Assembly (NCBI GenBank): GCA_963667755.2
Contig: CAXXLK010000002.1
Location: 928,118-968,117 of the forward strand
From: Desulfobacterales bacterium
GTDB lineage: Bacteria; Desulfobacterota; Desulfobacteria; Desulfobacterales; 4572-123
DNA: 40,000 nucleotides
Direction: 5' to 3'
Shown: piece by piece, positions 12,960 to 38,862 of the stretch
How positions within the stretch are numbered: position 1 is the stretch's first letter
Layout: every line of letters starts with the position of its first letter
Program-made: the position numbers and the translations under genes
Notes under the pieces: generated by a model
Database searches by the model: none
What the model saw: the letters and a program-made list of their open reading frames with translations, nothing else
Told to the model about the DNA's origin: nothing

Positions 12960-13047
12960 AGGGTTAAACTCCTCTTAAATGGTTTTTAATGGTAATAGAC
13001 ACTATCATGTCCTTTGTTTATATAACGAATCCTTTTCCCAGATAGTG

Positions 13048-14523
13048 TTACGAAGATAAGTCAGATCGATTATCTGCCGCGCACCTTTGTAGGTATGCCT
13101 TGAGATCTCTGTCCAGGTCCCTGGAAATCATCATGTCCGGTCGATTTGCAAGGATCTCTTTATAGCGTCGGTTGGCGCGGGTCATGATGCTCTCTTTACC
13201 GTTGGACGCCCAGTTGTCATAGGACTGCCAGCATGAGACCGTGGGAAGCCACTGGCTTCTGAACCGTGCAAAGGTATCTTCATGGGGGAGATAACTGCCG
13301 CCGGGTCCCACTTCTTTTATGACATCCAGGGACAATTCACCATCGGAGGTGTCGACCCCTTCGCAGATACGGATCACCCGGCTCATCATCTCCTCGTCAA
13401 TGATGAATTTTTCATAGGAAATGGTCAAAATGGCATCCAGTACACCAAATACCTGCTCGATCATGTGGCCGCCGGACATCATTCCCATCATCATGTTCTG
13501 CATGGTGTCATACCCGGCCTGGATATCCACCTCCTTGGCGTCAGTCATACCGGCCATAATGCGGGTGGGCACTTTGTAAAAATCAATGGCCATCTGGAGA
13601 CAGGTCGAGTTGATCAAAAATTGTTCCGGGGGGGCATATATGCAAATGGCGGTTCTCATATCGGCAACCGTGGATGCCGGGCAATATACCATGGGCCCGC
13701 CGGGATTGATCAATTGCACCAGGGCATTTCCGGCCAGTACCTCAGCATTTTGCTGAACAATACTGCCAAAAAGGCTCATGGGCGCTGTGATGCCTGCCAG
13801 GGCACATGGCAGAATATAAACCGGCTGATTTCTGCCGGCATATGCAATGATGGTGTCAAGGGTTTCCGTGGCATATTTCAATGGGCTCAAGGGGTTGGTG
13901 CTGACCCCGATACAATAGTTTGTTTCAAGAAATTTTTCACCGAACACCATTTCCACCATATCAAGGGATTCTTTTGCTTTTTGGGCAACGGTACAGCTTC
14001 CGATGATGGGTTTGTCTGTATGTTTGATGGTTTCGTAAATCATGTACAAGGCCCGCTCGGTGTCCGCTACATCATCCGGCGCCACGGGGGTGGCGCCGGT
14101 GAGTTTTACAATGTCGCTGGCCTGGGAGAGTTTCTGAAAATTAGCGTAGTCCTCAAGAAGTCCCCGGCGTTTTCCGCTGTCCATATCTTCACAGAACACG
14201 CATCCCACATTGGGGTGGGGGGCAAAACCATCGCCAATGGTCACCGATTGTGCGTCATTTCTTGCCACGTGGCGATATGTCGTTGGGGCCTGTTCCATGG
14301 CGGCTTCCGCCATGGGGCCTGGAATGAATACGGTTTTCCCGTCCACCCTGGCCCCATGGCGTTTAAAGATTTCAAGGGCCTTTTCATGTTCGAAGATGAT
14401 GCCGCACTGTTCCAAAATTTCGATACTGGCGTCGTGTATCCTGGGCAGGTCGGTATTTTTCACTATTTTGACACGAGGCAGTTTTCTTGTTGCGGAATTA
14501 CAGAAGGTATTGGGTGTAATCAT
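13048..14523 (-). CDS. MttB-superfamily methyltransferase, non-pyrrolysine type (candidate quaternary-amine:corrinoid methyltransferase)
   Basis: Uninterrupted 491-aa ORF, colinear with the two TAG-containing mttB genes in this window. VPTRIMAGMTDAKEVDIQAGYD aligns with LPSFAAGG[TAG]GDSKVVDYQSGHE, placing a Met codon where the paralogs have TAG. An AGGAG RBS lies 8 nt upstream. Confidence 0.85.
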   Translation of the reverse strand: MITPNTFCNSATRKLPRVKIVKNTDLPRIHDASIEILEQCGIIFEHEKALEIFKRHGARVDGKTVFIPGPMAEAAMEQAPTTYRHVARNDAQSVTIGDGFAPHPNVGCVFCEDMDSGKRRGLLEDYANFQKLSQASDIVKLTGATPVAPDDVADTERALYMIYETIKHTDKPIIGSCTVAQKAKESLDMVEMVFGEKFLETNYCIGVSTNPLSPLKYATETLDTIIAYAGRNQPVYILPCALAGITAPMSLFGSIVQQNAEVLAGNALVQLINPGGPMVYCPASTVADMRTAICIYAPPEQFLINSTCLQMAIDFYKVPTRIMAGMTDAKEVDIQAGYDTMQNMMMGMMSGGHMIEQVFGVLDAILTISYEKFIIDEEMMSRVIRICEGVDTSDGELSLDVIKEVGPGGSYLPHEDTFARFRSQWLPTVSCWQSYDNWASNGKESIMTRANRRYKEILANRPDMMISRDLDRDLKAYLQRCAADNRSDLSS

Positions 14524-14538
14524 ACGTCATCTCCTAAG

Positions 14539-15057
14539 TTACCCTCTTGCCAGGGCCAGCAGGTTAACACCCAGCTGGTGGCGTTTTTCAGCCGGACAGC
14601 CGTTTTCGATGCGCTGTTTCATCTGCAGCCCGTTGAGCTTGCGCATCTGCTTGTCACCCTCGACAAAGACGATGGCCTCGGGTTCGCATTCCTTGACGCA
14701 GGCCGGGTCTCCGCCGCAGTAATCGCATTTGAAGGCGATATGGTCGCTGCCCATCTCGATCATGCCGTAAGTACAGGCGTCCACGCAGTCGCCGCAGCCG
14801 TTGCATTTTTCGGCATTGACCAGCACAACCCCGTCGGCATCTTTGGTGATGGCCCCCTCCGGGCAGGCCTTCATGCAGTCGGGCTTGGGGCAGTGAAAGC
14901 AGATGCTGGGTACCGAATATCCCCTGAGGGGGAAATTGTTGATATGAATTCTGGCCTTGGTGGGCTGGAACAGGCCTTGTTTAACCGCGGAGCAGACATA
15001 GACGCAACGGTTGCATCCGGTGCAGAGTTCAGGATTGGCAAATATATGTTTTTCCAT
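14539..15057 (-). CDS. 4Fe-4S dicluster (poly)ferredoxin
   Basis: 172-aa ORF with several Cys clusters (CTGCNRCVYVC, CFHCPKPDCMKACP, CNGCGDCVDAC, CDYCGGDPACVKEC). It starts 23 nt after the AOR stop. Confidence 0.85.
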   Translation of the reverse strand: MEKHIFANPELCTGCNRCVYVCSAVKQGLFQPTKARIHINNFPLRGYSVPSICFHCPKPDCMKACPEGAITKDADGVVLVNAEKCNGCGDCVDACTYGMIEMGSDHIAFKCDYCGGDPACVKECEPEAIVFVEGDKQMRKLNGLQMKQRIENGCPAEKRHQLGVNLLALARG

Positions 15058-15080
15058 GAGTTGTATTCCTCCTGGGGCTT

Positions 15081-16844
15081 TTAGAATTGGTCAAGACCTA
15101 GCTGGGCCAGCTTTTCCGGGGTGGGAACGCCATTTTTATCCCATCCGCGCTTTTCGTAGTACAAGGCCAGGCAGTGGTCGAAATCTTCCGGCGCAAACAC
15201 CCGTCCGGTGTGTTCGCCCTTTTGGAGCTGCTGTGTCATCTGCTTGACCGGCAGATAATCGTCTGCACGGGTGAGACCGGCCCTGAGGTTGAACAGGCGC
15301 AGAATATTCCAGATCTTCTCCCCGGCATGTTCCAGCTGCCCGGCCGTGACCGTTTCCCCCGTGGCCACGGAGAGAATGTCGGCAATGATGGGCGCTGTGA
15401 TCGAACCCCAGAAGTCGCAAAAGCCCATGGACCATTTGATGGTCGCAAAGTTTTGACCGTCAACCACGTCCCGGGCCATGGCCGCCAGGTCAAAGGGGGT
15501 TTCACTGAACATGGGAAAGGCGCGCATGTGGCAGCCCCCGCGTTCGCTGGTGGCATACGCCAGTCCCATGCCGTAATTGGAGCGGGGGTCATAGGCCGGG
15601 AATTCAAGGCCCTTGGCTTCGGAGGTTAAATCCTGGCTGTCATACTTGGCAGCCAGCTTTTTGGCCCCCAGGGCCAGGTCTTTGCCGCGCCGGGTGGAAA
15701 GGGTGGCGATTTCAGTGACCGCCTTGAGGTATTCGACGGGTTCGCCGAATTTCAGATTGAAGTCGTGGCGGCCTTTTTCGGTCATGTCCATGGCCAGGCC
15801 GATGATGTTGCCGCAACTGATGGTATCCAGGCCCAGATCATCGCACAACCGGTTGAAGCGGATGACCTGCTCCAGGTCGTTGATTTCGCAGTTGCTGCCC
15901 GCCAGGCAGAGGGTCTCGTATTCCGGTCCTTCCATCTCGGCACCATTGATGTGGGTGAATTTGCCGCAGGCCAGGGGGCAGGTGGAACAGGCCCGGTTTC
16001 CCAGCTTGGCGGCCTTGATGGCCTCGGTGTTGATGCCTTCCTTGGCGTCGTTAACGCCATAGCTGAAATTGCGGGTGGGATGGCCCCCCATATCGCTGAT
16101 GACATCCACCAGCATCGCAGTACCGTCGGTTTTGGCCCACAGGTTGGCCTCGGTCAACAGGTCGGTTTTTTTGTACGCGTTGACCTTTTCGATGAAGGCG
16201 GGCACGTCCGCCACTTTGATACCGCCGGTACCGCGCACCACAATGGCTTTTAACTTTTTGCTGCCCAGGATGGCGCCACCGCCGCTGCGGCCCATCTGGC
16301 GGTAGGCCTCGGTGCCGAGGCAGGCATGGGATACCATATTCTCACCGGCCGGCCCGATGGCCAGCACTTTGGCTTCGGGGGTTCCCACAGCCGCCTGCAG
16401 TCGTTCTTCGGTTTCGAAAAGGCCCTTACCGGCCAGGAATTGGGCACTCTCCAGACTCACCTGGTCATCCATGATCTTAAGATAGGTCGGCTTTTTGGCC
16501 GCGCCTTTGATGATGATGCCGTCATAGCCGGCAAATTTGAGTTCAGGTCCGAAGGCGCCGCCGGTATTGGAAGAAAAAATAGTGCCGCTATGGGGCGACT
16601 TGGACACCAGATTGAACCGGGCGGTCATGGGGGCTGACGTGCCGCCCAGGGGCCCGGTCATGATGATCACCGGATTTTCAGGGGAAAGGGGGTCGACTTT
16701 GGGGTCAACCAGATCCCAGTAGTAACGGACCGCCAGCCCCCAGCAGCCCCAGTATTCCTTGATCCAATCTTTCCGCAGCGGTTCTTCTGAAATTTGCCCG
16801 GTGCTGAGATCAACAACGAGTAATTTACCTGCATAAAGATTCAT
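15081..16844 (-). CDS. aor: Tungsten-type aldehyde:ferredoxin oxidoreductase
   Basis: 587-aa ORF. The N-terminus reads GKLLVVDLSTGQ...GGTSAPMTARFNLVSKSP...GYDGIIIKG, and the C-terminus reads YYEKRGWDKNGVPTPEKLAQLGL, both typical of the AOR family. A GGAGG RBS is present. Confidence 0.9.
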   Translation of the reverse strand: MNLYAGKLLVVDLSTGQISEEPLRKDWIKEYWGCWGLAVRYYWDLVDPKVDPLSPENPVIIMTGPLGGTSAPMTARFNLVSKSPHSGTIFSSNTGGAFGPELKFAGYDGIIIKGAAKKPTYLKIMDDQVSLESAQFLAGKGLFETEERLQAAVGTPEAKVLAIGPAGENMVSHACLGTEAYRQMGRSGGGAILGSKKLKAIVVRGTGGIKVADVPAFIEKVNAYKKTDLLTEANLWAKTDGTAMLVDVISDMGGHPTRNFSYGVNDAKEGINTEAIKAAKLGNRACSTCPLACGKFTHINGAEMEGPEYETLCLAGSNCEINDLEQVIRFNRLCDDLGLDTISCGNIIGLAMDMTEKGRHDFNLKFGEPVEYLKAVTEIATLSTRRGKDLALGAKKLAAKYDSQDLTSEAKGLEFPAYDPRSNYGMGLAYATSERGGCHMRAFPMFSETPFDLAAMARDVVDGQNFATIKWSMGFCDFWGSITAPIIADILSVATGETVTAGQLEHAGEKIWNILRLFNLRAGLTRADDYLPVKQMTQQLQKGEHTGRVFAPEDFDHCLALYYEKRGWDKNGVPTPEKLAQLGLDQF

Positions 16845-17036
16845 GTCCCCTCCAATTATCCATGTTTGTTAATGAAAACTATCCACAGGCCCCTGGGGGC
16901 CGGTAAAACCAAACGTTCAGGCAGACGGTTGTTTAGACTGAAGGTTAAATGCATTCTACCTGTTTAATGGCTATCTTCAGCCTTCAACTTTTTACCTGTA
17001 TATACGTAGCCATCTGAAAGAACGTTTACGAGAGCA

Positions 17037-17981
17037 TCATCCCTGGCATGGATGAATACCGTCAGATTGTTCGGCGACCAGTGTTTCCGGAAATCCCGGT
17101 GCCCGCAAAGGCTGCCGGCAGGCATCTTCCAGCATTTTAACCACTTTTGGCGACCACGCATCACCGCCGAATAAATTGCGGGCCCTTTCAAAAATCTGGC
17201 GCGTCATACCGCCCAGTTCCAGGGGAACATTGAGTTTTTCCGCAATTCTACCTGCAAATCGCAGATCCTTGCAGGCCAGGTCCATGGTGAAATTTACGTT
17301 ATAGCTGCCGCTGAGAATAAGTTGAGATTCGGTTTCATGGACAAAGCTGTTACCCGAACTTGCCCGAATCGCTTTGTATGCAGCCCCCAGGTCCACCCCC
17401 TGTCTGGCTGCCAGCATCATGCCTTCCCCGGCGGCCACCAGATGAATAAACGCCAGCATGTTGGTGACCACTTTGACAACGCTGGCATTGCCGACGACAC
17501 CCAGGTGAATCACCTCCTTGCCCATTACTTTGAGGATGGGTTTAAAACGCTCATACACAGCGATATCGCCGCCGACGAGCACGGTGATCTCACCGGTATG
17601 GGCCAGGTGCACGCCGCCTGTCACCGGGCACTCCAGCACGTCAAACCCTTTTTCCCGGGCAATCAGCGCCAGGCGCTGGATATCTTCAAAATCGGTGGTG
17701 CTCATTTCGATCCAGCAGCTGCCCTGCATCAGGTGGTCGAAAACACCCCCCGCCTGCTCCACCACGGCCCGGGAAGCCTCGGGTGAAGGCAACGCCGTTA
17801 TCACCACCGTTGCTGCATGGCATACCCCGGCGATATCATCAGACCATCTGGCGCCGGCTTCGATCAGACCGACACCGACTTCAGGGTGAAGGTCGCTGAC
17901 GGTCACATCGTGGCCGGCCCTGACCAGGTTCAAGGCCAGGGGATACCCCAGATTGCCTAATCCGATAAATCCGATGTTCAT
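17037..17981 (-). CDS. NAD(P)-dependent beta-hydroxyacid dehydrogenase (3-hydroxyisobutyrate dehydrogenase family)
   Basis: I moved the start to the ATG at 17981 (MNIGFIGLGNLGYPLALNL, a Rossmann GxGxxG) because GGAG lies 6 nt upstream. The track start at 18044 adds 21 unsupported residues. Confidence 0.85.
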   Translation of the reverse strand: MNIGFIGLGNLGYPLALNLVRAGHDVTVSDLHPEVGVGLIEAGARWSDDIAGVCHAATVVITALPSPEASRAVVEQAGGVFDHLMQGSCWIEMSTTDFEDIQRLALIAREKGFDVLECPVTGGVHLAHTGEITVLVGGDIAVYERFKPILKVMGKEVIHLGVVGNASVVKVVTNMLAFIHLVAAGEGMMLAARQGVDLGAAYKAIRASSGNSFVHETESQLILSGSYNVNFTMDLACKDLRFAGRIAEKLNVPLELGGMTRQIFERARNLFGGDAWSPKVVKMLEDACRQPLRAPGFPETLVAEQSDGIHPCQG

Positions 17982-26089: not shown

Positions 26090-26369
26090 TGGTTCCTCCT
26101 CTACTTTTTAGGGGTTACGTTCAATGTGAAATCAACTTGCCGGTTTTTAAAAAAAGCAATTTTGAGTTGTTGATTACTTTTAGCAACATCTGGTTTAAAT
26201 TTATGATTATGGCTCAATTTGTATGCCGCTATAATATTTTGAATTAAGCTAATACTATACAATAATATTGATGGAAAGTATAGGTGTTTTTATTTTATAT
26301 AAAATCAATAGCTTATAGTTGAAGTTGGCTCGCCTGATATCTTCCGGAAGCCCCTGGCCCGCCGGCGCA

Positions 26370-26954
26370 TCATAGGCGACTGTGCAGTCTGGCCAATAGA
26401 TCGGGCAACCATCCTAATGCCAGCTGTTCGAGGGCTTCCCGGGCGGGCCGTCCGGTAGTGGCCTCCCAGCTCCGCTGGCGGTAGAATTCTGCCGCTGCGG
26501 TATCGACTTCCGAGCGGTTCATACGTTTGCCATGGGTGGGTCTACCTTTGAGCGGTGTCGTAAAAATTTTTCTGCAAGTTTGTCCCTATCCCGGCTAAAG
26601 CCTTCCCGATAATTAAAGGCCCGCATCACATTCACCCGGCGGGCACCGACGGTAAGCAGTTCTTCCAGGGTTACGTTCCACCCGGTCACGGACTGAACGA
26701 GCGTGACATAATCGTCAGGCCCGTACAGCTGCCATGAAGCGCCCCAACAAAACGGGCAGACACAGAGGCTGTCGGCCCGGTTGAATATATCCTGGATCTG
26801 AATTGTATGTCCCGGCTTTAGCGACGCCTGCATCACTGATCAGGAAGACGTTCCTGGATTCCGTTAATGCAGAAATTTCATCTCCTATCTGTTCGACGCG
26901 ATCAACCCCGAAGGAGATGTTGCCAACCCCTGGAAAGGTAATTGGAATCATCAC
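26370..26954 (-). pseudogene. Chimeric relic: N-terminus of an iron-type alcohol dehydrogenase joined to the frameshifted C-terminus of an aldehyde:ferredoxin oxidoreductase
   Basis: 26954-26811 encodes MMIPITFPGVGNISFGVDRVEQIGDEISALTESRNVFLISDAGVAKAG, an Fe-ADH N-terminal pattern. From about 26803 a different frame reads IQIQDIFNRADSLCVCPF...VTGWNVTLEELLTVGARRVNVMRAFNYREGFSRDRDKLAEKFL. After a frameshift near 26556-26570, beside an A5T5 run, it reads TPLKGRPTHGKRMNRSEVDTAAAEFYRQRSWEATTGRPAREALEQLAL, with the stop at 26370-26372. This parallels the C-terminus of the intact AOR at 15081-16844. Confidence 0.65.
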
Positions 26955-27230
26955 AATCCTTTCAAAATAAGCAGGCCGGCCTTTGGCGATTATCCATCCA
27001 GAAACGAGAACTTTTGTTCAAAATCAGGGTATGCACAAGTTTTATCAGAAACAAATGATTGATATTCTACAGCTATTCTTTGATGAACGTGCAAAAAGTA
27101 TTTGGGATGGTTAAGTAGAAATCGTCTATATAAGGCATAGGGATTTACCAGGGGCGAAGGCAACCATATGGTATATCGAGTCTCTGGAAAGTCCCTATAA
27201 CGCAGTAGATGGCGACTTTTTACGACGCCA

Positions 27231-28703
27231 TCATTCTTTGATCCCCAGCTCTTTTTCGGCGCCGTCAACAATGTCACGCAGCTGTTTGAGGACAGCCCCT
27301 GAAAGTTTCGGTGGTTCATATGTTTCAAGAATGTGTCGAACCGCTTCGCCGGCCCGCTCGTATGCATCCTTTGAACCGTTTTCTTCCCAGCGGAATCTCA
27401 TCTGCCGGTTCAGCAGCTTCGGGCTTGTGGTCAGCCGCATGTGCTTGAAGGTGGATTCGTGAGCCAGATAATCCTTGAAAGGGCCGACCTCCTTGATGGT
27501 ATCGATGGACAGGGTTTCGTCATTGACCTCAATGCCGTTTACCGTCCGTTTGATCATACCGGCCACTTCGTTATCCAATACCAGTTGTGCCAGATCAAAG
27601 GTGATACCCATTTCCAGCATTCCCAAGCCGTAAATTACGTTGCACCCTGACAACGCAGGCAAGATACCGGTGATGGTTTTTTCATGGCCGGACTGGTAGT
27701 CAACCACTTTGCTGTCGCCCTATCCACCGGCGGCGAAACTGGGCAACCCATAGTAGCGGGCAAGCCGGGCCACCGCCGCATTGATCATGGCCGTCTCAGG
27801 GGCACCCACCGTTGCCGTGGCATACTTCAGGTCCAGAGGGCAGGTGGAACTGGCATAAATGAACGGCGTCCCTTTTTTAACCAGTTGGCCCAGAACAAGA
27901 CTTGCCAGATTTTCGCTGTTTTGCTGTACCAATGTTCCGGCAATGTGGATGGGGGAAGAGCCGCCGGTCATGGCCATGCCGATACAGTTTAACCCAATGC
28001 CGTTTCGGGCCGCTTCGATAATGATGTCACAATGGTGGGACGACAGCTTCAAGGGGCTGATGGGACAGGTCACAAAGGTCAGAAACGGTCTTTCCCTGAA
28101 TTTATCCATATCCCCGGCGATGGCAGCGCACATTTCAAGAATTTTTCCGCACTGATACCGGTCCACCGGACCCAGCCAGTGATGCTTGGTCGTATTGGTG
28201 AGTGATGCCTCGGCATTGTGCAGTGCCTGCACCCTGGGGTCTTTATCATGGGAAAGCATGCAGCGTTCATAGGTTTCCACATGTTCCAGAGAATCGATGA
28301 GCCTGGCGGCCATCTCGATATCGGCCTTGGTGGTTTTACGATGTTCTCCCGTATAAGGATCGACAAACATGATGCCTTCACCAAAATTGGTGAACGTCAC
28401 CCGGTTGGCTTCCAGAACCACATCGCTCTCCGGTATGCGGCCGTAGGCATGAAACGTAGCCGGCGCCGTCCGGATCGACGCTTCCACCAGATAGGGTGGG
28501 AGGGTAACGACTTTTGTTTTTTCATTCACACTGGCGCCGGCAGCACCGAAGATCTGCCTTGCCTCTTCACTTTCCACAAAAACACCGGTGCATTTCAGGA
28601 TTTCAAGGGAACCCAGGTGTATTTCATGCACTTCGTCGTCGGTGAGTGTGTTTAGACTGAAGCCGCCGCTGGATAATTTCCCGGATTTGGTTGGTCGCTT
28701 CAT
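27231..28703 (-). CDS. mttB: Trimethylamine:corrinoid methyltransferase MttB with in-frame UAG (predicted pyrrolysine), copy 1
   Basis: Track ORFs 27720..28703 and 27231..27707 share one frame and are separated only by TAG at 27720-27722. The read-through sequence is ...YYGLPSFAAGG[TAG]GDSKVVDYQSGHEKT... The total of 490 codons is a typical MttB length. An AGGAGG RBS lies 5 nt upstream of the ATG at 28703. Confidence 0.85.
27720..27722 (-). other. In-frame UAG, candidate pyrrolysine codon (mttB copy 1)
   Basis: The plus strand reads cta and the minus strand reads GGT GGA TAG GGC GAC AGC AAA. The position aligns with the TAG of copy 2 and with a Met codon in the non-Pyl paralog at 13048-14523. 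Confidence 0.85.
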
Positions 28704-28725
28704 TTTTTCCTCCTGTAGAAGTCAT

Positions 28726-30120
28726 TTAACTATTTTTTTCGATGGCGTTCTTGACGGCGGTTAGTATTTGGTCCATCTGTTCTTTAGTGGCGACAAGGGC
28801 CGGCGCAAAGAGCATCATGGTGTTCATACCCGGCAGGCTGGAGTTGGTTCTGCCCACCAGCACGCCCTGGGCGGCCACATCCGCCACCAGTTTACCCATA
28901 AACGCTTCGGAAACAGGCGTTCTGGATGCCTTGTCCGTCACGAACTCCACTCCACAGAAAAGACCTTTGCCGCGTACGTCTCCAACAATGGGAAAATCCA
29001 AAAACGCTTTCAGGCCATTGAGCAGATATTCGCCTACCACCCTGCTGTTTTCCACAAGGTTTTCATCATCAATGATACGGGCCGTCTCAAGACCCGCGGC
29101 CATGGCGCCGGTACACCCGCCATAGGTACTGATATCCCGGAAATAATTCAATCGCTTTTCCGGTGTCCCGGTATCGAGGAACAGGTTAAAAATGTCATCG
29201 CTTATGGCGGTAACCGATAACGGTTCATAGCAACTGGCAACGCCCTTGGCCATAGTCACCATGTCCGGCGTTACATCATAATGTTCATGGCCCCAGAATT
29301 TTCCGGTGCGGCCGAACCCGCAGACCACCTCGTCAAAGATCAGGTAGGCCCCGTATTTTTTGCAGATTTGCTGGAGTATGGGATAGTATTCCTGGACGGG
29401 TACCAGGATGCCGCCGCCGGCAACAATGGGTTCCACGATCACCCCCCCCACGGTGTCCGGCCCCTCTTTTAGAATGACATCTTCCAGGGCGCGGGCGCAT
29501 TCGATGTTACAATCCGGATAGGTCTTGCCAAAGGCGCACCGGTAGCAAAGCGGGTGGGGAAACTCGGCAAACCCTTCAGCCATGGGTCCGAAATGCGCTT
29601 TTCGTTCACTCTGTCCCCCGGCACTCAATGCCCCGATGGTGGTACCGTGATAGTCCCGGTCCCGGTAGATCACTTTGAATTTACCTTTACGGTCATCGTT
29701 GATTTTCGCAAGCTGCCGGATGATCTTAAAGGCCTTCTCATTGGCTTCGGAACCGGAATTTGAAAAAAATATTTTCTTTTGATGGGGAAGCTTCTCTGCG
29801 AGTTTTTTAGCAAATTTAATGGCGGGGACTGTGCCGACCGCACCGGCGTAGTAGCACAGTTTTGTCAACTGTTCAGCCACCGCCTCGGCAATACTTCTGC
29901 GACCGTAACCCACCACCACGCCCCACACACCACCGGAGACTGCATCAAGATATTCCCGGCCCCGGATATCTTTTACCACAAGGCCGTTGCCTTCCACGAT
30001 AACCATCTGTTCCTTGTCTGCAAAGACACTATGGTCCTTGAGATGATGCCATAAAAAATCTTTGTCCGCTGCAACCATTTCTTCCACATCGTAATCAAGC
30101 CAGTTTGTTTTCGGATCCAT
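28726..30120 (-). CDS. Class-III (omega) aminotransferase, PLP-dependent
   Basis: 464-aa ORF with FFSNSGSEANEKAFK, LIFDEVVCGFGRTGK and DMVTMAKGV (PLP-lysine region). Its stop lies 22 nt upstream of the mttB copy 1 start. An AAGGAG RBS is present. Confidence 0.85.
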   Translation of the reverse strand: MDPKTNWLDYDVEEMVAADKDFLWHHLKDHSVFADKEQMVIVEGNGLVVKDIRGREYLDAVSGGVWGVVVGYGRRSIAEAVAEQLTKLCYYAGAVGTVPAIKFAKKLAEKLPHQKKIFFSNSGSEANEKAFKIIRQLAKINDDRKGKFKVIYRDRDYHGTTIGALSAGGQSERKAHFGPMAEGFAEFPHPLCYRCAFGKTYPDCNIECARALEDVILKEGPDTVGGVIVEPIVAGGGILVPVQEYYPILQQICKKYGAYLIFDEVVCGFGRTGKFWGHEHYDVTPDMVTMAKGVASCYEPLSVTAISDDIFNLFLDTGTPEKRLNYFRDISTYGGCTGAMAAGLETARIIDDENLVENSRVVGEYLLNGLKAFLDFPIVGDVRGKGLFCGVEFVTDKASRTPVSEAFMGKLVADVAAQGVLVGRTNSSLPGMNTMMLFAPALVATKEQMDQILTAVKNAIEKNS

Positions 30121-30240
30121 ATTTCAATCTCCTTTTCTAATACAAAAATTAGCAGGCAATACGAGAAAAACAGTAGCGCCCATAACTCTTTTTGTTCAGA
30201 CACAGGCGCATATCGCTTACCCCATGCTTACCTGTTGTGA

Positions 30241-31815
30241 TTATTTCGCATCCGGCATGGAAGAGATGGTCCCATCCCAGGTGTCCACGAGGCCGCAGGC
30301 TTCCTGGTCTTCGGGAAACCAGGTGGCGGTGACGCATTTGGATTCGGTAAAGAAACTGATACCATCTTTGCCCATCACATGCAGATCTCCAAAAAAGGAT
30401 TGTTTGTGACCTGTAAAACCGAAAATACCCAGTGGTACCGGGATGCCGACATTGACACCCACCATGCCGGCATCGGTCCGTTTGGAAAATTCCCGCGCGT
30501 AATGGCCGTTCTGGGTATAAATGACCGAACCGTTGGCAAAACGGCTGCTGTTCATCAAGGCCAGTCCTTCCTCAAAATTTTGGACCCGTTTGACGCAGAG
30601 TACCGGGCCAAAGACTTCCTCCCAGCCGATGGTCATTTCCGGTGTCACATGGTCAAAGATGCAGGGCGCCAGATAAAAACCGCCCTCATGACCCGCTACC
30701 TTGGGATTACGGCCGTCCACGATCAGTTCGGCGCCCTCTTCGATTCCTTTTTCGATCCAGTCGGTGATAAACTTCAGATGGCCCGCGTTCAAGATGGGCC
30801 CCATGCCGGTGTCCGGGTCATAGGCAGGGCCAAGGTTCATTTCGGCTACAAATTTTTTCAGCAGCGCAATCAGTTCATCCGCAATGCACGCTTCCACAAC
30901 GATCACCGGGCAGGCCATACACCGGGCACCGGCACAGCCGCAATAGGCATTGATAATACCCCTGGCGGTTCGCTCCAGTTTTGCATCCCGCATGACCAGC
31001 GCATGGTTTTTGGCTTCGGTGAGGGCCTGCACGCGCTTACCGTTGGCAGCGGCGGTGGCATAGATGTGTTTGCCGGTTTTGGTGGATCCCACAAAAGACA
31101 CCCCTGCAATATCGGGATGGCTAAGGAGAATCTCGGCCTCATTACGGCCTGCGGTGACCAGATTGAGGACCCCCTCGGGCAGTCCGGCCTCATGCCAGAG
31201 TTCCAGGAGCCGCATGGACGTCTGGGGCACAAAACTGGCGGCTTTCAGCACCATGGTATTGCCCGTGGCGATACACAGCGGTGCCATCCAGCCATGGGGA
31301 ATCATGGCGGGGAAATTCCAGGGTGCAATACCGGCGAAAACACCGACGGGGTGTCTGTAGAGAACCGTGTCATATCCGGCGGAAGCGTTCATCAGGGATT
31401 CTCCCTTCATCAAATGGGGGGTCCCGCAGGCAAATTCGACCACTTCGTTGACTTTCAGTACATCGCCCATGCTTTCCCGCCAGTTTTTACCTTCTTCCTG
31501 GCACAACAGGTGGGTCAGTTCTTCCAGGTGTTCATCCACCAGCGCTTTCATACGATACAAAACCTGAACCCGTTTACTGACCGGGGTGTCGGCCCAGGCC
31601 GGAAACGCCGCTTTAGCGGAATGAATGGCCGATTCGACCTCTTCGGATGTGCACTGGGGCGCCATGGCGATCACTTCGCCGGTGGACGGATTATAGCAAT
31701 CCATGTATTTTGTTGCTTTTGATTCAAGCCACTGCCCGTTGACGCAGTATTTCAGTTTTTTGACCGAATTTTTTGAAGACGACCCACTCTCCATAAAATA
31801 TCGTGATTTTTGCAA
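30241..31815 (-). CDS. mmsA: CoA-acylating methylmalonate/malonate-semialdehyde dehydrogenase family aldehyde dehydrogenase
   Basis: 524-aa ORF with [32 protein letters not shown], and EAKNH in place of the ELGGK general-base segment, as in MmsA/IolA-type enzymes. The [10 protein letters not shown] catalytic-Cys region is present. The track start at 31815 is a TTG lying 10 nt after AGGAG; the alternative ATG is at 31794. Confidence 0.8.
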   Translation of the reverse strand: [524 protein letters not shown]

Positions 31816-32765: not shown

Positions 32766-34157
32766 ATGGGAAAAATTAAAACCCGAATGGGCGATGGCTT
32801 CAAGGTCGAGATGACCGAAAGCGAAGTCCGAAAAGCCCTGGAGGAAGGGACTCAGGATGCGGCAGAGCGTGCCCGGGTCGAGCCATTGTCGCCGGATGAT
32901 CTCCAACGGATTTTTGAGATTTTTACCTGTCCTTATCGAATCGTTGGCGTTGATGAGGGCAATGAGGTGGTTCTTACCTACGACAGTCTTAACACCAAAA
33001 TCAAACGGGCACAGATTTCAGCCAGCAAGATCCAGTCCCTTCAGATTTGTGAAAGGGCCCTGGGGGCAGACACCCTGGAGCTTGCCCATATCGACTACAG
33101 TTATAAACCGGTAAAACCGATCATTCCCTTTGAAAAACCGATAATGGAGCAGGCCGTCCTGATCACAATCCCGGCATTGCTCTATGGCGCCATGCCTAAC
33201 CTGGGGCTCTACAGCCAGCCGGACGGCCCATGTCCTAATCCGGCGGATCTTCTTCCCAATGGAAAAATCGCTGAAGCCAGGGCATCCTATGAAGAGGCTG
33301 CCGAATACGCCATAGCGGATATGGTTTACGTGGGTAGCGAGATGTATGAATCCGGCGCCGACGGCATCAATTTTGATACCACGGCTGCAGCCGGGGATGC
33401 GGAATTTTATGCAACTCTCAAAGCGGTGGAGATTCTCAGAAAAAAATATCCCGCCATGGGCATCCAGATGGGTATGGCCGCGGAATTCGTATTGGGAATG
33501 CACGGAGAGATTGAATATAACGGTGTCCGTCTGGCCGGGCTCTACCCTCACCAGCAAGTCAAACTCGCCGAAGAAGCCGGGGTAAACATTTTTGGACCGG
33601 CCGTCAATATCGTCACCAATGAATCGTTGCCCTGGAACATTGCCCGTTCCGTTACCTGGACCAAAGCCTGCACGGATGTTGCAAAGATTCCGGTACACGC
33701 ATGCCTGGGAATGGGTGTCGGCGGTGTCCCCCTGGCGCTTACACCGCCCATAGATGCCCTTTCACGGGCATCAAAGGCCCATGTAGAGATCTGCAGGCTG
33801 GACGGGTTGTAGGTGGGTGTCGGAGACCCGTGCGGGATGCACGCTGCACATGCAATAGTATCGGGACTGGGTGGCATACGCACTGCCGGAGATCTGGTAG
33901 CACGAATGCAACTAAATGGCTCGATGAAAATTGATGCAGCAAAAAAACATGTCGCGGATAAGTTGAAAATTTCTGTCGCGGATATTGCGGACCCGGTGGT
34001 GATGAACGAACTCCGGGAAGATCTGGATATCGGCCGCGTCAATGAGGCCCCCGGTGTGGCCAAGGGTATTGATGCGAAGTTTAGGATTGCCAGGCTTCTG
34101 GACATTAACATCAACTCGGTGAACATATTCAAGGAGAAAATAGAACGCGACATATGA
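32766..34157 (+). CDS. mtbB: Dimethylamine:corrinoid methyltransferase MtbB with in-frame UAG (predicted pyrrolysine)
   Basis: Track ORFs 32766..33812 and 33813..34157 are contiguous in one frame and separated only by TAG at 33810-33812: ...SKAHVEICRLDGL[TAG]VGVGDPCGMHAAHAIVSGLGGIRTAGDLVARMQ... It is colinear, as far as I recall, with Methanosarcina MtbB (HIDYSxKPVKP, LxYGAMPNxGLY, ASGADGxNFDTTxAAGD, LAGLxPHQQ, DGx-Pyl-xGVGDPxGM, GDLVARM). The TAG is codon 349 of 463. An AAGGAGG RBS is present. Confidence 0.85.
33810..33812 (+). other. In-frame UAG, candidate pyrrolysine codon (mtbB)
   Basis: GAC GGG TTG TAG GTG GGT GTC GGA. Conserved MtbB sequence runs on both sides in the same frame. Confidence 0.85.
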
Positions 34158-34302
34158 TTTTACATCACGGGGCGTTCCTGTATTGGACCTGAAAATTGTT
34201 TAAATGCCCCCGGCTTCTCGAAGACCGGAAGCCGCGGAAAAAATGTCCGGCGGTTACCCCAAACCAAAGATCGGAGAGTTGTCTTTTAAAAGGAGATGGA
34301 CG

Positions 34303-34955
34303 ATGACGATAATTGAAGTACGCTTTGAAGAAGCCAAAAAGCCATGGTAGCGTGTGACGCTGAAAATGCCTCGCTGGTGGCGACACAGGGTTTAGCAGAT
34401 GGGATTGACCCTGTTGAATTTTTGAACAAGGGATTCATTCCCGGAATAAATGAGGTCGGAGGGCTTTTCGGTAAAGGCCGGTTGTTTCTTCCCGAATTGA
34501 GTATCGCCGCAGAAGCCATGCGACAGGTAACCGATATTATTAATGGTGCACTTGGAGCCGCCGGAACGATTTCAAAAAAGGCAGGGAAAATTCTCATGGC
34601 CACTGTTCAGGGTGATGTTCATGATATCGGTAAAACCATTGTGGTGTCACTTTTCAAAGCCAACGGATTTGAGGTGCTGGATTTGGGGCGAGATATTTCC
34701 AACGAAAAAATTATTGAAGAAGCTGTGCGGTTTGAAGCCGATATTATCGGTACCAGGGCGCTTCTCACCACTACTATGCCCGCCCAATAAAAACTTGAAA
34801 AAGAACTGAAGAAAGCCGGCCTGAAGGGAAAAATCAAGACAATTGTTGGTGGGGCGCCCGTAACACAGAGATGGGCCCAGCGCATCGGCGCAGATGCTTA
34901 CGCCCGGGGCGCATCTGATGGTGTTCAGAAAGCAAAGCTGATGATAGGGCTATGA
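34303..34955 (+). pseudogene. Corrinoid (B12-binding) protein gene downstream of mtbB, apparently inactivated (MtbC-like)
   Basis: Cap and B12 domains are recognisable (GDVHDIGKT = DxHxxG; ALLTTT; IVGGAPV). There are three lesions. (1) The RBS-proximal start, ATG at 34303 (MTIIEVRFEEAKK), is out of frame with the body starting at 34344, consistent with loss of one A in the A5 run at 34336-34340. (2) An in-frame TAA at 34788-34790 aligns with a Lys of the paralog at 35143-35772. (3) The SxL Ser is replaced by Arg (GTRALL). The conserved C-terminus KLEKELKKAGLKGKIKTIVGGAPVTQRWAQRIGADAYA continues in frame to the TGA at 34953-34955. Confidence 0.7.
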
Positions 34956-34998
34956 ATTAGAATGGTCTGGCTCCTGCCCTGGTTGAATTATGGTTTAA

Positions 34999-35043
34999 CC
35001 CTGCAACGTAATCTTGTTATATCCGCAAGGTAATGTTGCAGGG
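34999..35043 (+). other. Extended hairpin downstream of the plus-strand mtbB/corrinoid unit
   Basis: CCCTGCAAC (34999-35007) pairs with GTTGCAGGG (35035-35043), with an inner CTTG/CAAG helix and symmetric GTAAT internal loops. There is no U-run, so a terminator role is uncertain. Confidence 0.3.
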
Positions 35044-35051
35044 GTGATGCC

Positions 35052-35112
35052 GGAAAAAAATAGCCCGGTTCCTCAGGGACTGCATGAATGCAGTATACTT
35101 TGGGACCGGGCT
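35052..35112 (-). terminator. Rho-independent terminator candidate for the mttB-mttC unit
   Basis: On the minus strand, AGCCCGGTCC (35112-35103) pairs with GGAACCGGGCT (35072-35062): a 10-bp stem with one bulge and an inner ACTGCAT/ATGCAGT helix. It is followed by ATTTTTTTCC (35061-35052) and starts 31 nt after the mttC stop. Confidence 0.6.
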
Positions 35113-35142
35113 AAAAATCAAACTTTTAAAACAGGCTGAATA

Positions 35143-35772
35143 CTATACCAGAGATTTGGCCAGCTTGGTGGCTGAACCGGCATCTGCGGCATATCCGTCG
35201 GCACCGATTTCATCGGCATATTTCTGGTTTACCGGGGCACCGCCGATGATGACCTTGACCTTGTCGCGGTATCCGGCTTCAACCAGAGCGTCGATGGTTG
35301 TTTTCATCATACCCATGGTAGTGGTGAGCAGGGCAGAGATGGCAACTATGGTGGCGCCCTGGTCTTTTACGGCGGCCACAAAAGTTTCCGGGGCTACGTC
35401 AACACCCAGGTTGATCACCTCAAAACCGGCGCTTTCCAGCATCATGGCCACCAGGTTTTTACCGATGTCATGCAGGTCGCCCTTGGCCGTACCCATGGCA
35501 ACTTTGCCGGCGGCTTTGGCATCTTCTACGGACAGCAGGGGTTTAAGTATTTCCACTGCTGCGGCCATGGCCTTGGCGGCCATGAGCACTTCGGGGATAA
35601 ACATATCGCCGTTCTGCATTTTTTCGCCGACAATATCCATGCCTTTGATCAATCCGTCATTGAGAATATCTTTTGCTTCCATTCCCTCGTTCACGGCGGC
35701 TTGCACAAGCGTTTTCAATGTTGCTGCATCGCCGGCTATCAGTGTGTTCGAAAGTGCGTTTAAATCTGCCAT
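35143..35772 (-). CDS. mttC: Methylamine-type corrinoid protein (MttC-like, B12-binding)
   Basis: 209-aa ORF with a helical cap domain plus GDLHDIGKN (DxHxxG), SALLTTT (SxL) and IIGGAPV (GG). It lies 48 nt downstream of mttB copy 2 and has an AAGGAG RBS. It terminates in TAG (35143-35145). The symbol is assigned by context only. Confidence 0.8.
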   Translation of the reverse strand: MADLNALSNTLIAGDAATLKTLVQAAVNEGMEAKDILNDGLIKGMDIVGEKMQNGDMFIPEVLMAAKAMAAAVEILKPLLSVEDAKAAGKVAMGTAKGDLHDIGKNLVAMMLESAGFEVINLGVDVAPETFVAAVKDQGATIVAISALLTTTMGMMKTTIDALVEAGYRDKVKVIIGGAPVNQKYADEIGADGYAADAGSATKLAKSLV

Positions 35773-35820
35773 TGTCTTTGTCTCCTTTGTTTCTAGTTGA
35801 TAAAAAGTTCTGTTACCGGG

Positions 35821-37314
35821 TTATTTCTGGGAAACCGTGGCCCGTTTTTCTTTTGCTTGGGCCTCGGCATTTTCAAATATTGTGTTTAACTGGGCCTGAA
35901 TGTTTTCAGGCAATGCTTCTACCTTGTGGCTGGCGATGATGTGGGCTGCCCTGGCATAGGCTTTTTCCACAACATCCTTTGATCCATCTGCAATCCAGCC
36001 GTCACGGCTTTTTCTGTCAAAAAGGTCTCCCTGGGACTGCCGCCGCATATTTTTAAAGGTATGCGGATGGGTGATGAATTCACCGCCGTGGCCCACCTCT
36101 TTGATGACGTCAAAAGCAATGGCTTCATCGGTAATGGTAAATCCTTCGACTGCCTTCATGATCATTCTCAGCATTTCATTGTGTAAAACCGCCTGGGCGT
36201 AATCCCAGGTCAAACCGCTGTCAAGCATCCCGAGGCCGTAAATCAGGTTGGCACCTGCCAACGCCGTTAAAGTGGCCGTTAAGGTATATTCATGGGCTGC
36301 CTGCGCATCGGGCATTTTGCTGTCCACCTATCCACCGGCGACCCAGGAGGGGAGCCGGTAAAACTTGGCCAATTTGGCGATGGCAGCGCTGAACATCCCC
36401 ATTTCCGGAGTCCCCATGGCCGCCAGTCCGGTTTTAAGGTCCATGATGCTGGTGGAACTGCCGTATACCATGTGATGGCCCTTGCGGACAGCCTGTCCCA
36501 GGACAATCATGCTTAAATTTTCAGCATTATGGGTGACAAGACTGCTGGCCAGGTTGATGCAGGTGGTGCCACCCGCCAGTCCAAGGGGGTTGATTTTCAG
36601 GGGGACGCCCAGTCGACAGGCTTCAATCAGAACGTCGCAGGCATCTTTTGAATGCAGCAACGGGCTGATGGGATCACAGGTTGTGGAGAAAATCGGTCTT
36701 TCACGGAATTTGTCATCACCGCCGGCCACAACGGAGGCCATCTTAAAACAGGTCCTCAGATTTTCAACCGAGTTGATGCCGATATAGCCATGTTTGGTGC
36801 AGGAATTCAAAAAACTTTTAATGTTGTAAAGACAGCAGATATCCTGGTCCATATCGCAGGGGGTTAACGGTCTTTCAAACACAACGACCTGGTCCAGTGC
36901 ATCCAGAAATAACGTGGCGTCATCAACGTCAGCTTTTGTGGGGGTTCTTAATTTTCTGGTTTTGGGGTCGATCATCATGGGGGCTTCGCCAAAATTGACA
37001 AATCCCGACCGACCGTTTTCACAGACATAATCCTTTTCAGGATCACGGGCGCAAGCCTTAAAAGTGGAAGGGCAGGACCTGATGGCATCTTCAACCAGAT
37101 GGGCTGGAATTTTGACTATTTTGGTTCTATTATTGACAATACAACCAATTCCGTCAAAAATTTCAAGGGCCTGGGAGCTTTCCACTTTGACTCCCATTTC
37201 CCAGAGAATTTCCAGAGTAGCCAGATGAATTTTTTCCAATTCGTCATCGGAAAACATGTTCAGACCGATACCACTGGTCAGAACGGTTCCCGGCTGCAAA
37301 TTTCTTACCGCCAT
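35821..37314 (-). CDS. mttB: Trimethylamine:corrinoid methyltransferase MttB with in-frame UAG (predicted pyrrolysine), copy 2
   Basis: Track ORFs 36328..37314 and 35821..36327 are contiguous in one frame and separated only by TAG at 36328-36330: ...FYRLPSWVAGG[TAG]VDSKMPDAQAAHEYT... The gene is 497 codons and colinear with copy 1 throughout. Confidence 0.85.
36328..36330 (-). other. In-frame UAG, candidate pyrrolysine codon (mttB copy 2)
   Basis: The minus strand reads GGT GGA TAG GTG GAC AGC AAA. This is the same GG-TAG-xDSK context as copy 1. Confidence 0.85.
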
Positions 37315-37714
37315 AATTGGTTTCCTTCATTTTCATAGAAAGACGATAAAATTTCGGTTTTTTACCGGAGGCTGCCTATATATGGTATGTTTTTTCCGGT
37401 AATGAAAGACTCTCCTTGTGCGTTGCAACAGCTTTTAATTATAGATATTTTTTTGTTGAATCCCTCCTTAATTTATTAAATAAAAATTCAAAATAATGTA
37501 CCATTTGATCGCCTATAAACCCTTAAGGGCGCGGTATAATGACTCTGGGTCAAAAAGTCAATCATAATCATCACAAAAGGGTGTATTTTTATGATTCAGT
37601 GTACAAAAATACCCCCTTGATGGCATCGGCCGCCTGCATCAGTTCAGGTAAAAAGAGCTGGCTCCTGCCAAAAAGATCGCTTATTTAGTGTCCCTATCGG
37701 GGATGGTTGAAACC

Positions 37715-37752: not shown

Positions 37753-37878
37753 ATGCAACTTTACAAACTTGGAGCCCATACAAAAACTGATCTCAAAGCA
37801 CATGTGATTTGGATACCCAAATACCGTAAAAAAGTATTGACGGGAGAGGTAGCCATCCGAACCAGAGACATATTGCGG
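37753..37878 (+). pseudogene. IS200/IS605-family Y1 transposase (TnpA), N-terminal fragment
   Basis: MQLYKLGAHTKTDLKAHVIWIPKYRKKVLTGEVAIRTRDILR matches the HxxxxLxxHIVxxPKYRRKVLxGEV pattern. The HUH (DHVHLL) segment that should follow is missing. Confidence 0.65.
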
Positions 37879-38582
37879 TATGTACTCATGGATAGCTGGT
37901 TTACCAAGCCAGCGAACATTTGCGCACTGAGAGAACACCTGGACGTGATTGGCATGCTCAGCAAGACGCCCAAGGTTTTTGCTATGAGCACGACGGAAGA
38001 AAACGGAACTTGATGGAGATCTACCAAAATCTTACCAAGCGCCGAGGGCGAGCCAAAATACTGGCATCTACCACCGTAACACTTAGCGACGGTAAAATGG
38101 CCAAAATCGTTTTTGTCCGGGATCGCCGCAAAAAGGACTGGTTGGCGTTATTGTCCACCGATACCGGCCTGGCCGATGCCGAGGTGGTTCGTATTTACGG
38201 AAAGCGCTGGGACATTGAGGTCTTGTTCAAAATGACCAAACAGCATCTGAAACTCGTCAAGGAGATCCAATGCCGGGATTTCGATATGCTGATAGCACAC
38301 ACGACCATTGTATTTATGCGATACATGTTCATCGCCTACAGGGTGCGCGTGGAGTCGGATCACCGTATCTTTGGTGATTTGTTTTATGCATGTTGCCAAG
38401 AACTTGATGATATCGGTTTTGTTGAAGCTTTTGACAGAATAATGACTTTGGCCGTTGAACAATTACGGCAGATGGGAACGTTCTGTGAAAGAACAGCTAT
38501 GGCCTTTTTCGATAATGTGATGGCCACAGCTTTGAAGTACGTCATTTTGTCAAAGAACAGAGTGATCACTGTCAATTGTTAA
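37879..38582 (+). pseudogene. IS4-family DDE transposase, 3' fragment with a frameshift
   Basis: It begins at YVLMDSWF (second catalytic-D region) with no upstream N-terminal domain. There is a frameshift in the T5 run at 37976-37980; adding one T joins KVF to CYEHDGRK. The YREK signature YGKRWDIEVLFKMTK is present, and the stop is at 38580-38582. Confidence 0.6.
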
Positions 38583-38595
38583 AGTCGAAAGTTGA

Positions 38596-38862
38596 GTTTA
38601 TATCATATCGACCGACCCAAAATATAATCAAGATTATATGCAGTGGCTAAAAGGGATAAGCTCCCGAATATTATTATCGGAATTTGCCCACTTACGAAAA
38701 CAATTTTGGGGTCGACATTTAGGGTCTCGCAGTTATCTTGCCGTAAACTCAGATAATATTACTGATGATGCCGTTCAAAAGTATATTGAAGCGCAAGAGG
38801 GTGAACCCGTTGTCGATAACAATCGATTTAAATCGACACCTCTTAAACCCCTCGTCTTGTAG
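38596..38862 (+). pseudogene. IS200/IS605-family TnpA, C-terminal fragment
   Basis: VYIISTDPKYNQDYMQWLKGISSRILLSEFAHLRKQFWGRHLGSRSYLAVNSDNITDDAVQKYIEAQ matches the PPKxSxSxxxxxLKGxSS...FWxxxY pattern of IS200 TnpA. Confidence 0.65.

Follow-up and report, generated by a model that had tools for sequence, protein, structure and literature searches.

An mttB gene interrupted by an in-frame UAG codon may be either a broken gene or a gene in which the UAG is read as pyrrolysine (Pyl). This question is raised by a 40,000-nt stretch of DNA from a Desulfobacterales bacterium (hereafter the window), in which a gene that we call mttB2 contains such a codon and is followed by a corrinoid-protein gene, mttC2. 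A sequence-only reading of this DNA had proposed that UAG decoding has been maintained here over a long time. In this regard, we examined the conservation of the UAG codon, the selection acting beyond it, the corrinoid partner and the surrounding genes. The results indicate that mttB2-mttC2 is very probably a working two-gene operon with which this organism begins the anaerobic use of trimethylamine (TMA). The parts of mttB2 are as follows.

37314-35821, minus strand: mttB2, the whole gene, with a 497-residue product carrying X at the TAG
36331..37314, minus strand: the part before the UAG, codons 1-328 (open reading frame, Pfam MTTB, NCBIfam TIGR02369, alignment with PDB 7xcl)
36328..36330, minus strand: the in-frame UAG, codon 329, a putative pyrrolysine codon in the column of Pyl334 of 7xcl
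35821..36327, minus strand: the part after the UAG, an open frame of 168 codons followed by a TAA stop (35821-35823)

The sequence-only reading had placed the TAG at 36328-36330 in a GG-TAG-xDSK context shared with the first mttB copy of the window, and both the position and the context proved exact. The residues before the TAG are ...LPSWVAGG and those after it VDSKMPDAQ..., i.e. VDSKMPDAQAAHEY..., and copy 1, whose TAG falls in that same column of the alignment, reads FAAGG-TAG-GDSK. With X at the TAG, mttB2 scored 620.4 bits against TIGR02369 (trimeth_pyl, an equivalog model), passing the cut-off of 525, as did copy 1 with 669.3 bits; a non-Pyl MttB homolog of the window (13048-14523) reached 308 bits and fell below it. 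Residues 2-484 aligned with Methanosarcina barkeri MttB (PDB 7xcl, E = 5e-95), and the UAG fell on Pyl334 of that structure, X on X (VAGGxVDSK against VAGSxSDAK). In M. barkeri MttB, the pyrroline ring is activated by Gly110 and Tyr364, and the corrinoid is contacted by Gly372 (PMC9842639). All three residues are kept in mttB2, as G109, Y359 (Tyr in 87/87 relatives) and G367 (Gly in 79/87), the last two lying beyond the TAG.

We then looked at the codon in relatives. Scanning genomes gave 18 loci, each in a Desulfobacterales-type metagenome-assembled genome (MAG), and protein look-ups added two contigs, giving 20 genome orthologs; a metagenome scan with the family alignment returned 80 loci at 43-90% identity, 79 of them evaluable. 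Every genome ortholog (20/20) has a TAG at codon 329 of mttB2 and an open frame beyond it, and all 79 evaluable metagenome relatives have it at the same codon, followed by 160-185 open codons. Combined, the TAG is conserved in 99/99 evaluable relatives at 43-99% identity, which is far beyond chance. The nearest relative, L001 (HOU_bin.0076), is 99% identical in the mttB2 protein and 95.8% in DNA. Among the 120 best matches listed from the protein database, every one with at least 59% identity is a fragment of 316-331 residues that ends at this TAG.

For selection, the sequence-only reading had suggested comparing nonsynonymous with synonymous substitution rates (dN/dS) between the two mttB copies. 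This comparison was unusable because dS was saturated (3.7 or undefined), and therefore orthologs were used, which gave the predicted answer. Against orthologs at 82-90% identity, dN/dS was 0.07-0.08 upstream of the TAG and 0.15-0.18 downstream, and against L001 (dS 0.10-0.17) it was 0.016 and 0.16, respectively. The 95% bootstrap upper bounds after the TAG stayed at or below 0.33, and no indels were found there in the ortholog comparisons; the relaxed selection and indels beyond the TAG that had been named as evidence to the contrary are thus absent. The conserved TAG, together with purifying selection beyond it, bears out the proposed long-term maintenance of UAG read-through, and we infer that pyrrolysine is probably what is inserted at codon 329. 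The description of the two copies as diverged paralogs also held: they share 42.7% identity (43.1% before and 41.4% after the TAG) without internal indels and, judged by their sequences, are old paralogs.

The second gene of the pair and the flanking control regions comprise the following elements.

35143..35772, minus strand: mttC2, a corrinoid (B12-binding) protein of 209 residues (Pfam B12-binding and B12-binding_2)
35773..35820, minus strand: the 48-nt mttB2-mttC2 spacer, with an AAGGAG ribosome-binding site for mttC2 (read from the sequence)
35052..35113, minus strand: a terminator-like interrupted hairpin (35061-35113) with a U-run (35052-35060), from folding and orthologs
37315..37594, minus strand: the region upstream of mttB2, a tentative promoter and leader with blocks invariant across 7 loci

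As had been read from the letters, the spacer is exactly 48 nt and the protein after it is intact: the cap domain (PF02607) and the Rossmann B12-binding domain (PF02310) both match, and the DxHxxG, SxL and GG motifs are complete (D99-x-H101-x-x-G104, S146-A-L148 and G177-G178). Its best PDB match is 1y80, an uncharacterised Moorella protein, followed by 7xcn_M, the MttC of M. barkeri. The protein is 99% identical in L001 and 82-86% identical in L002, L026 and L027, where it occupies the same place after mttB, and the co-oriented mttB-mttC arrangement is found in L001, L002, L020, L026 and L027. We rejected this gene order as a distinctive feature, as both orders are common among relatives: mttB-mttC occurs in the nearest ones and in scattered others, and many Firmicutes-like loci have mttC first. 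The stop codon of mttC2 is itself a TAG (35143-35145), and the next in-frame stop lies 41 codons on, past the terminator, so that ribosomes reading through would reach the end of the transcript. At the equivalent position L001 has TAA, in a copy 99% identical, L002 has TAG, and L026 and L027 have TAA.

The terminator that had been judged convincing by eye stood up to analysis. It begins about 30 nt past the stop and consists of a hairpin and U7 of about -30 kcal/mol (z = -3.5), and none of 200 shuffled sequences was as stable. In four orthologous loci (L001, L002, L026 and L027), compensatory changes preserve the hairpin. A strict terminator scan (loop of at most 8 nt) gave no match at the 3' end of mttC2, because the loop is long and interrupted. 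On the other side of the operon, homology upstream of mttB2 to L001, L002, L019, L020, L026 and L027 ends at about 37594. The conserved stretch contains a -35-like TTGACT (37561-37556) within an inverted repeat, ATTATGATTGACT...AGTCATTATA (37568-37533), a UUACCGG...CCGGUAA stem (37404-37348) that brackets a variable insert, an internal AAGGAGG in the leader and the ribosome-binding site GAAGGAA (37328-37322). We assign a promoter here only tentatively; a strict promoter scan gave no minus-strand hit in 37315..37594, and RNAalifold on seven close mttB2 leaders was uninformative.

Within 10 kb, the window holds three genes with a TAG at the Pyl position, mttB1, mtbB and mttB2. The relevant neighbours are listed here.

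28703-27231, minus strand: mttB copy 1 (mttB1), with GG-TAG-xDSK and a TIGR02369 match
32766-34160: Pyl-type mtbB (NCBIfam dimeth_PyL, 512 bits against a cut-off of 369), 1.7 kb from mttB2
34303-34960, plus strand: an mtbC pseudogene downstream of the Pyl-type mtbB, with its ATG at 34303

Only two corrinoid genes, mtbC and mttC2, are present in the window. Measured against the intact 217-residue copy of L001, mtbC has lost 1 nt from an A-run near 34335, carries a nonsense codon at 34788-34790 (CAA to TAA) and has Arg in place of Ser in the SxL motif, and mttB copy 1 has no adjoining corrinoid gene. The sequence-only reading had called mttB2-mttC2 the functional core unit of the block; this is reasonable, since the sole other corrinoid gene is broken and copy 1 lacks a corrinoid neighbour. 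The pair is the one intact set of methyltransferase and corrinoid protein in a locally decaying block. In L001, mtbC and mttC are separated by an operon of about 5.5 kb (12270-17778), which the window lacks (34956-35046). It encodes a five-gene Liv-type ABC transporter (a binding protein, two permeases and two ATPases), which may be a methylamine uptake system. On the other flank, an IS200-type (Y1) transposase gene (37753-38013 and 38638-38862, plus strand) is interrupted by a DDE-transposase fragment (37920-38582); the two form a nested insertion-sequence (IS) insertion at 37753-38862, which starts about 160 nt beyond the point at which homology upstream of mttB2 ends.

From these features we propose the following course of events. 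Transcription would begin within the conserved sequence ahead of 37314 and end at the hairpin and U-run of 35052-35113. The UAG at codon 329 would be read as pyrrolysine, for which tRNA-Pyl, PylS and PylBCD encoded elsewhere in the genome would be needed, and the product would be a 497-residue TIM-barrel methyltransferase. The pyrroline ring of Pyl329, aided by Tyr359 and the backbone of Gly109, would bind and activate TMA; the methyl group would pass to the Co(I) corrinoid on MttC2, whose lower cobalt ligand would be His101 of the DxHxxG motif, and dimethylamine would be released. A second methyltransferase, encoded outside the window, would hand the methyl group to tetrahydrofolate for Wood-Ljungdahl oxidation coupled to sulfate reduction. 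The analysis shows directly the gene structure, the family, the position of the UAG, the kept catalytic residues, purifying selection across the UAG, synteny in the nearest relatives and the terminator; TMA as the substrate and the later fate of the methyl group, like the insertion of Pyl, are inferred.

Several observations weigh against this interpretation. No pylT, pylS or pylBCD was found in the 40-kb window, no tRNA, tRNA-Pyl included, either there or among 105 related loci, and no RamA-type activase, corrinoid:tetrahydrofolate (second) methyltransferase or transporter in the window. The corrinoid protein falls under the cut-off of every specific corrinoid model (199.2 bits against 215.3 for TIGR02370, pyl_corrinoid; 183.6 against 350 for MtbC; 211 against 370 for MtgC_2), and its name MttC rests on gene context, not on a model. 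The position of Met249, which in M. barkeri MttB moves aside and gates the TMA pocket, is Leu244 in mttB2 and Leu in 19/87 relatives. The neighbourhood is decaying, with the mtbC pseudogene, the deletion of the five-gene ABC transporter of L001 and IS fragments just upstream. Moreover, UAG is also the true stop of an acyl-CoA dehydrogenase gene, an FGGY kinase gene and mttC2 in the window, and therefore read-through must compete with termination. The first two of these stops lie at 2684-2686 and 5789-5791 (minus strand), where read-through would add 31 codons to the acyl-CoA dehydrogenase and 2 to the FGGY kinase. Because TAG truly ends these two genes, UAG is ambiguous in this organism, not reassigned.

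These points leave room for three other explanations of mttB2-mttC2. If the TAG were a real stop, mttB2 would be dead, yielding only a 328-residue fragment with a fossil frame downstream. Gene callers do split it into pieces of 328 and about 165 residues, TAG is the true stop of at least three other genes in the window, and neighbouring genes are decaying. Such a fossil would hardly keep TAG at the identical codon in all 99 relatives, exactly on Pyl334, nor a dN/dS of 0.15-0.18 without indels beyond it, nor a catalytic Tyr and Gly past the TAG that are invariant or nearly so; we consider this explanation extremely unlikely and reject the pseudogene reading as effectively refuted. It is also very unlikely that the pair is intact and simply unused in this strain, as a recently orphaned remnant of a methylamine pathway that is being lost. 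The three lesions of mtbC, the lost transporter operon, the IS fragments 400 nt upstream and the TAG stop of mttC2, where the 99%-identical L001 copy has TAA, would all agree with such a loss. Against it, since the split from L001 mttB2 has evolved with a dN/dS of 0.016 before and 0.16 after the TAG and without a lesion, MttC2 has remained lesion-free and 99% identical, and both the terminator and some 280 nt of regulatory sequence ahead of mttB2 are still present.

The remaining explanation accepts that the unit depends on pyrrolysine and questions its substrate, which would be another methylated amine, or has mttC2 serving a different methyltransferase. The best curated model for mttC2 is the glycine-betaine corrinoid protein MtgC_2 (under its cut-off), its best solved relative is the uncharacterised Moorella protein, and the Met249 equivalent of mttB2 is Leu. 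In addition, homologs at 70-72% identity adjoin a non-Pyl MttB, a dimethylglycine-oxidase-like gene or an alanine racemase and have no corrinoid neighbour, and mttB copy 1 shares its operon with genes for an aminotransferase and an aldehyde dehydrogenase. We nevertheless regard this explanation as quite unlikely, given that mttB2 exceeds the cut-off of the TMA-specific equivalog by about 95 bits, that the residues around Pyl are kept, and that a Pyl-type mtbB for dimethylamine, the product of the reaction, lies only 1.7 kb away. To our knowledge, every characterised Pyl-containing MttB uses TMA, whereas non-Pyl members of the MttB superfamily act on quaternary amines. A TMA-using mttB2-mttC2 operon thus remains the preferred interpretation.

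The region just beyond the UAG raises a further question, namely whether the mRNA itself carries a signal. Three elements are relevant to it.

36247..36262, minus strand: an intragenic hairpin, GUUGGC-AGGU-GCCAAC, in codons 351-356 (ALAGAN), 66-84 nt 3' of the UAG
27639-27654, minus strand: the same hairpin in mttB copy 1
36231..36330, minus strand: an Rfam PYLIS_3 (RF02510) match covering 100 nt from the UAG, 80.1 bits against a gathering score of 38

Across 22 orthologs, synonymous variation reached its gene-wide minimum at codons 351-358 (ALAGANLI; permutation p = 5e-5), with a mean codon entropy of 0.27 bits compared with a gene mean of 1.18, inside a wider dip spanning codons 339-374. The hairpin has a 6-bp consensus of R-U-U-R-G-C / AGGN / G-C-Y-A-A-Y. 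All six pairs are formed in 72/87 distinct Pyl-mttB genes, whose GC content at third codon positions ranges from 0.25 to 0.95, and of the 79 genes that encode A-L-x-x-A-N, 70 form every pair that depends on codon choice, where 3.6 would be expected from the codon usage of the individual genes. Two pairs between third codon positions, 72-81 and 69-84, switch jointly from G-C to A-U: the former (TTG...GCC to TTA...GCT) in one large Firmicutes-like clade, the latter (GCG...AAC to GCA...AAT) at no fewer than four separate places on a neighbour-joining tree. Pairing was found in 94% of the hairpin cells, against 25-57% with the partners slid. None of 500 shuffles reached the observed covariation score, in a control that ignores relatedness and for a structure derived from the same sequences. 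Occasional G-U pairs (in copy 1 and L023) favour an RNA structure over a DNA palindrome.

Other results temper this picture. The hairpin is absent from eight sequences of the deepest group. Its restriction to Pyl genes is not strict: the stem occurs in 1/9 non-Pyl sister genes with the same GGxSDSK...ALAGAN context, namely L112, which keeps it through a U-A to C-G change. A free-energy recoding test placed the gene of the window in the top 0.5% of synonymous recodings, and the median percentile over 87 genes was a weak 0.15. Since the free energy of 33 nt discriminates poorly in a GC-rich Ala/Gly stretch, the case for the hairpin rests on the pair-specific counts. All-against-all mutual information was dropped as a control, as it was dominated by amino-acid changes that define clades. 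Nor was the match to PYLIS_3 accepted as a sign of RNA structure, since the model draws some 8 scattered pairs and its score comes mostly from coding-sequence similarity. PYLIS_3 scores 60 bits in mttB copy 1, the PYLIS_3 and PYLIS_2 models match all three window genes with a TAG at the Pyl position, and apart from these three hits Rfam had no match for the 5' leader or anywhere else in the window. None of the roughly 8 drawn pairs of PYLIS_3 is the 69-84 hairpin, which is absent from the Rfam consensus, and therefore the element at 36247-36262 is not the Rfam-annotated structure. We did not find it described in the searchable literature.

It is possible, although we hold it doubtful, that this hairpin is a selected cis-acting mRNA element specific to a large, apparently mostly bacterial group of Pyl-mttB genes. 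It would then be a genuine 'PYLIS' of mttB, a gene for which no such element is so far accepted. At a fixed distance of 66 nt, it is too far away to touch a ribosome positioned on the UAG. Conjecturally, it could tune Pyl insertion against termination, for example through ribosome pausing or queueing, or couple read-through to mRNA stability or mttC expression. It offers a concrete, mutable target for the old question of whether an mRNA signal helps bacteria to read a given UAG as pyrrolysine. The non-Pyl sister genes mentioned above belong to a clade of full-length MttB homologs (P0027, P0034, P0040, P0062 and P0110; L106-L117) that keep GGxSDSK...ALAGAN and have Asn, Val, His, Ala or Thr at the Pyl site. 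In L107, a MAG labelled D. hafniense, the Val version is immediately followed by a 278-residue class-II aminoacyl-tRNA-synthetase-like gene (Pfam tRNA-synt_2d), a candidate pylSc.

Compared with the M. barkeri MttB/MttC system (PDB 7xcl, 7xcm and 7xcn; Li et al. 2023, PMC9842639), mttB2 shares the full-length alignment, the UAG on Pyl334 and the equivalents of Gly110, Tyr364 and Gly372, and the His-Asp ligand motif is common to both corrinoid proteins, although mttC2 is closer to Moorella 1y80. The system described here differs in its bacterial host, in its methyl acceptor, presumably tetrahydrofolate and not coenzyme M, in the Met249 to Leu replacement, in its mttB-mttC order and in the hairpin after the UAG. 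In Methanosarcina, mttC precedes mttB. Non-Pyl members of the MttB superfamily such as D. hafniense MtgB (PDB 2qne) belong to the same fold family (Pfam MTTB), but use a sense codon where Pyl would be encoded and do not pass TIGR02369.

Closer precedents come from bacteria. Marine Desulfobacterales MAGs were reported to encode, besides the Pyl machinery and non-Pyl MttB paralogs, a Pyl-MttB whose cognate corrinoid protein lies nearby (Kivenson et al. 2021, PMC8318568), with the amber codon at about 327 of 485 and a proposed route through tetrahydrofolate, the Wood-Ljungdahl pathway and sulfate reduction. The present locus belongs to the same bacterial order and resembles them in UAG position and in the corrinoid protein nearby; it differs in having two diverged Pyl-mttB genes and a Pyl-mtbB within 10 kb, and in that the window contains neither pyl genes nor RamA nor a metH-like second methyltransferase. 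The Olavius algarvensis delta-1 symbiont, a deltaproteobacterium, has several mtbB and mttB genes with in-frame UAG, some of them clustered, and also uses UAG as a stop (Zhang & Gladyshev 2007, PMC1976440), and multiple mtbB/mttB Pyl genes alongside UAG stops are likewise what the window contains. That pyrroproteome study found no common RNA structure in Pyl genes (PMC1976440), and the PYLIS source paper reported none for mttB (Have et al. 2013, PMC3639795). A Pyl-MttB with a nearby corrinoid protein has therefore already been described in this bacterial order, and the kind is not new. The locus is a clean example of genetic-code expansion in a sulfate-reducer lineage, with three genes that would need UAG to be read as Pyl in a single 10-kb block, in a genome where UAG still serves as a stop, and it strengthens the case for TMA use by Desulfobacterales in sediments, as known from methylotrophic methanogens. 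Together with the 96%-identical L001, the window forms a natural before-and-after pair, in which mtbC and the transporter operon have been lost from the window while mttB2-mttC2 has been kept under strong selection in both.

Some further features concern other mttB genes. In the homologs at 70-72% identity, the neighbourhoods are quite different and hold no corrinoid gene. In L021 (8538-13932), L023 (8532-12591), L112, L113, L090, L092 and L105, a Pyl-type mttB directly follows a full-length non-Pyl MttB homolog. On these Desulfobacterales-type contigs, the gene after the Pyl-type mttB is dimethylglycine-oxidase-like or encodes an alanine racemase, and no corrinoid gene adjoins it. At 27231-31815 of the window (minus strand), genes for a class-III aminotransferase and an aldehyde dehydrogenase immediately precede mttB copy 1 on the same strand, an operon context unusual for a Pyl-type mttB, and the copy is followed by fragments resembling aldehyde:ferredoxin oxidoreductase (26090-27230). 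At 13048-16844 (minus strand), the non-Pyl MttB homolog (491 residues) is followed by a 4Fe-4S protein and an aldehyde:ferredoxin oxidoreductase and preceded by a block of FAD-linked oxidase and electron-transfer flavoprotein (ETF) genes; the 13048-16844 region may be a quaternary-amine catabolic cluster.

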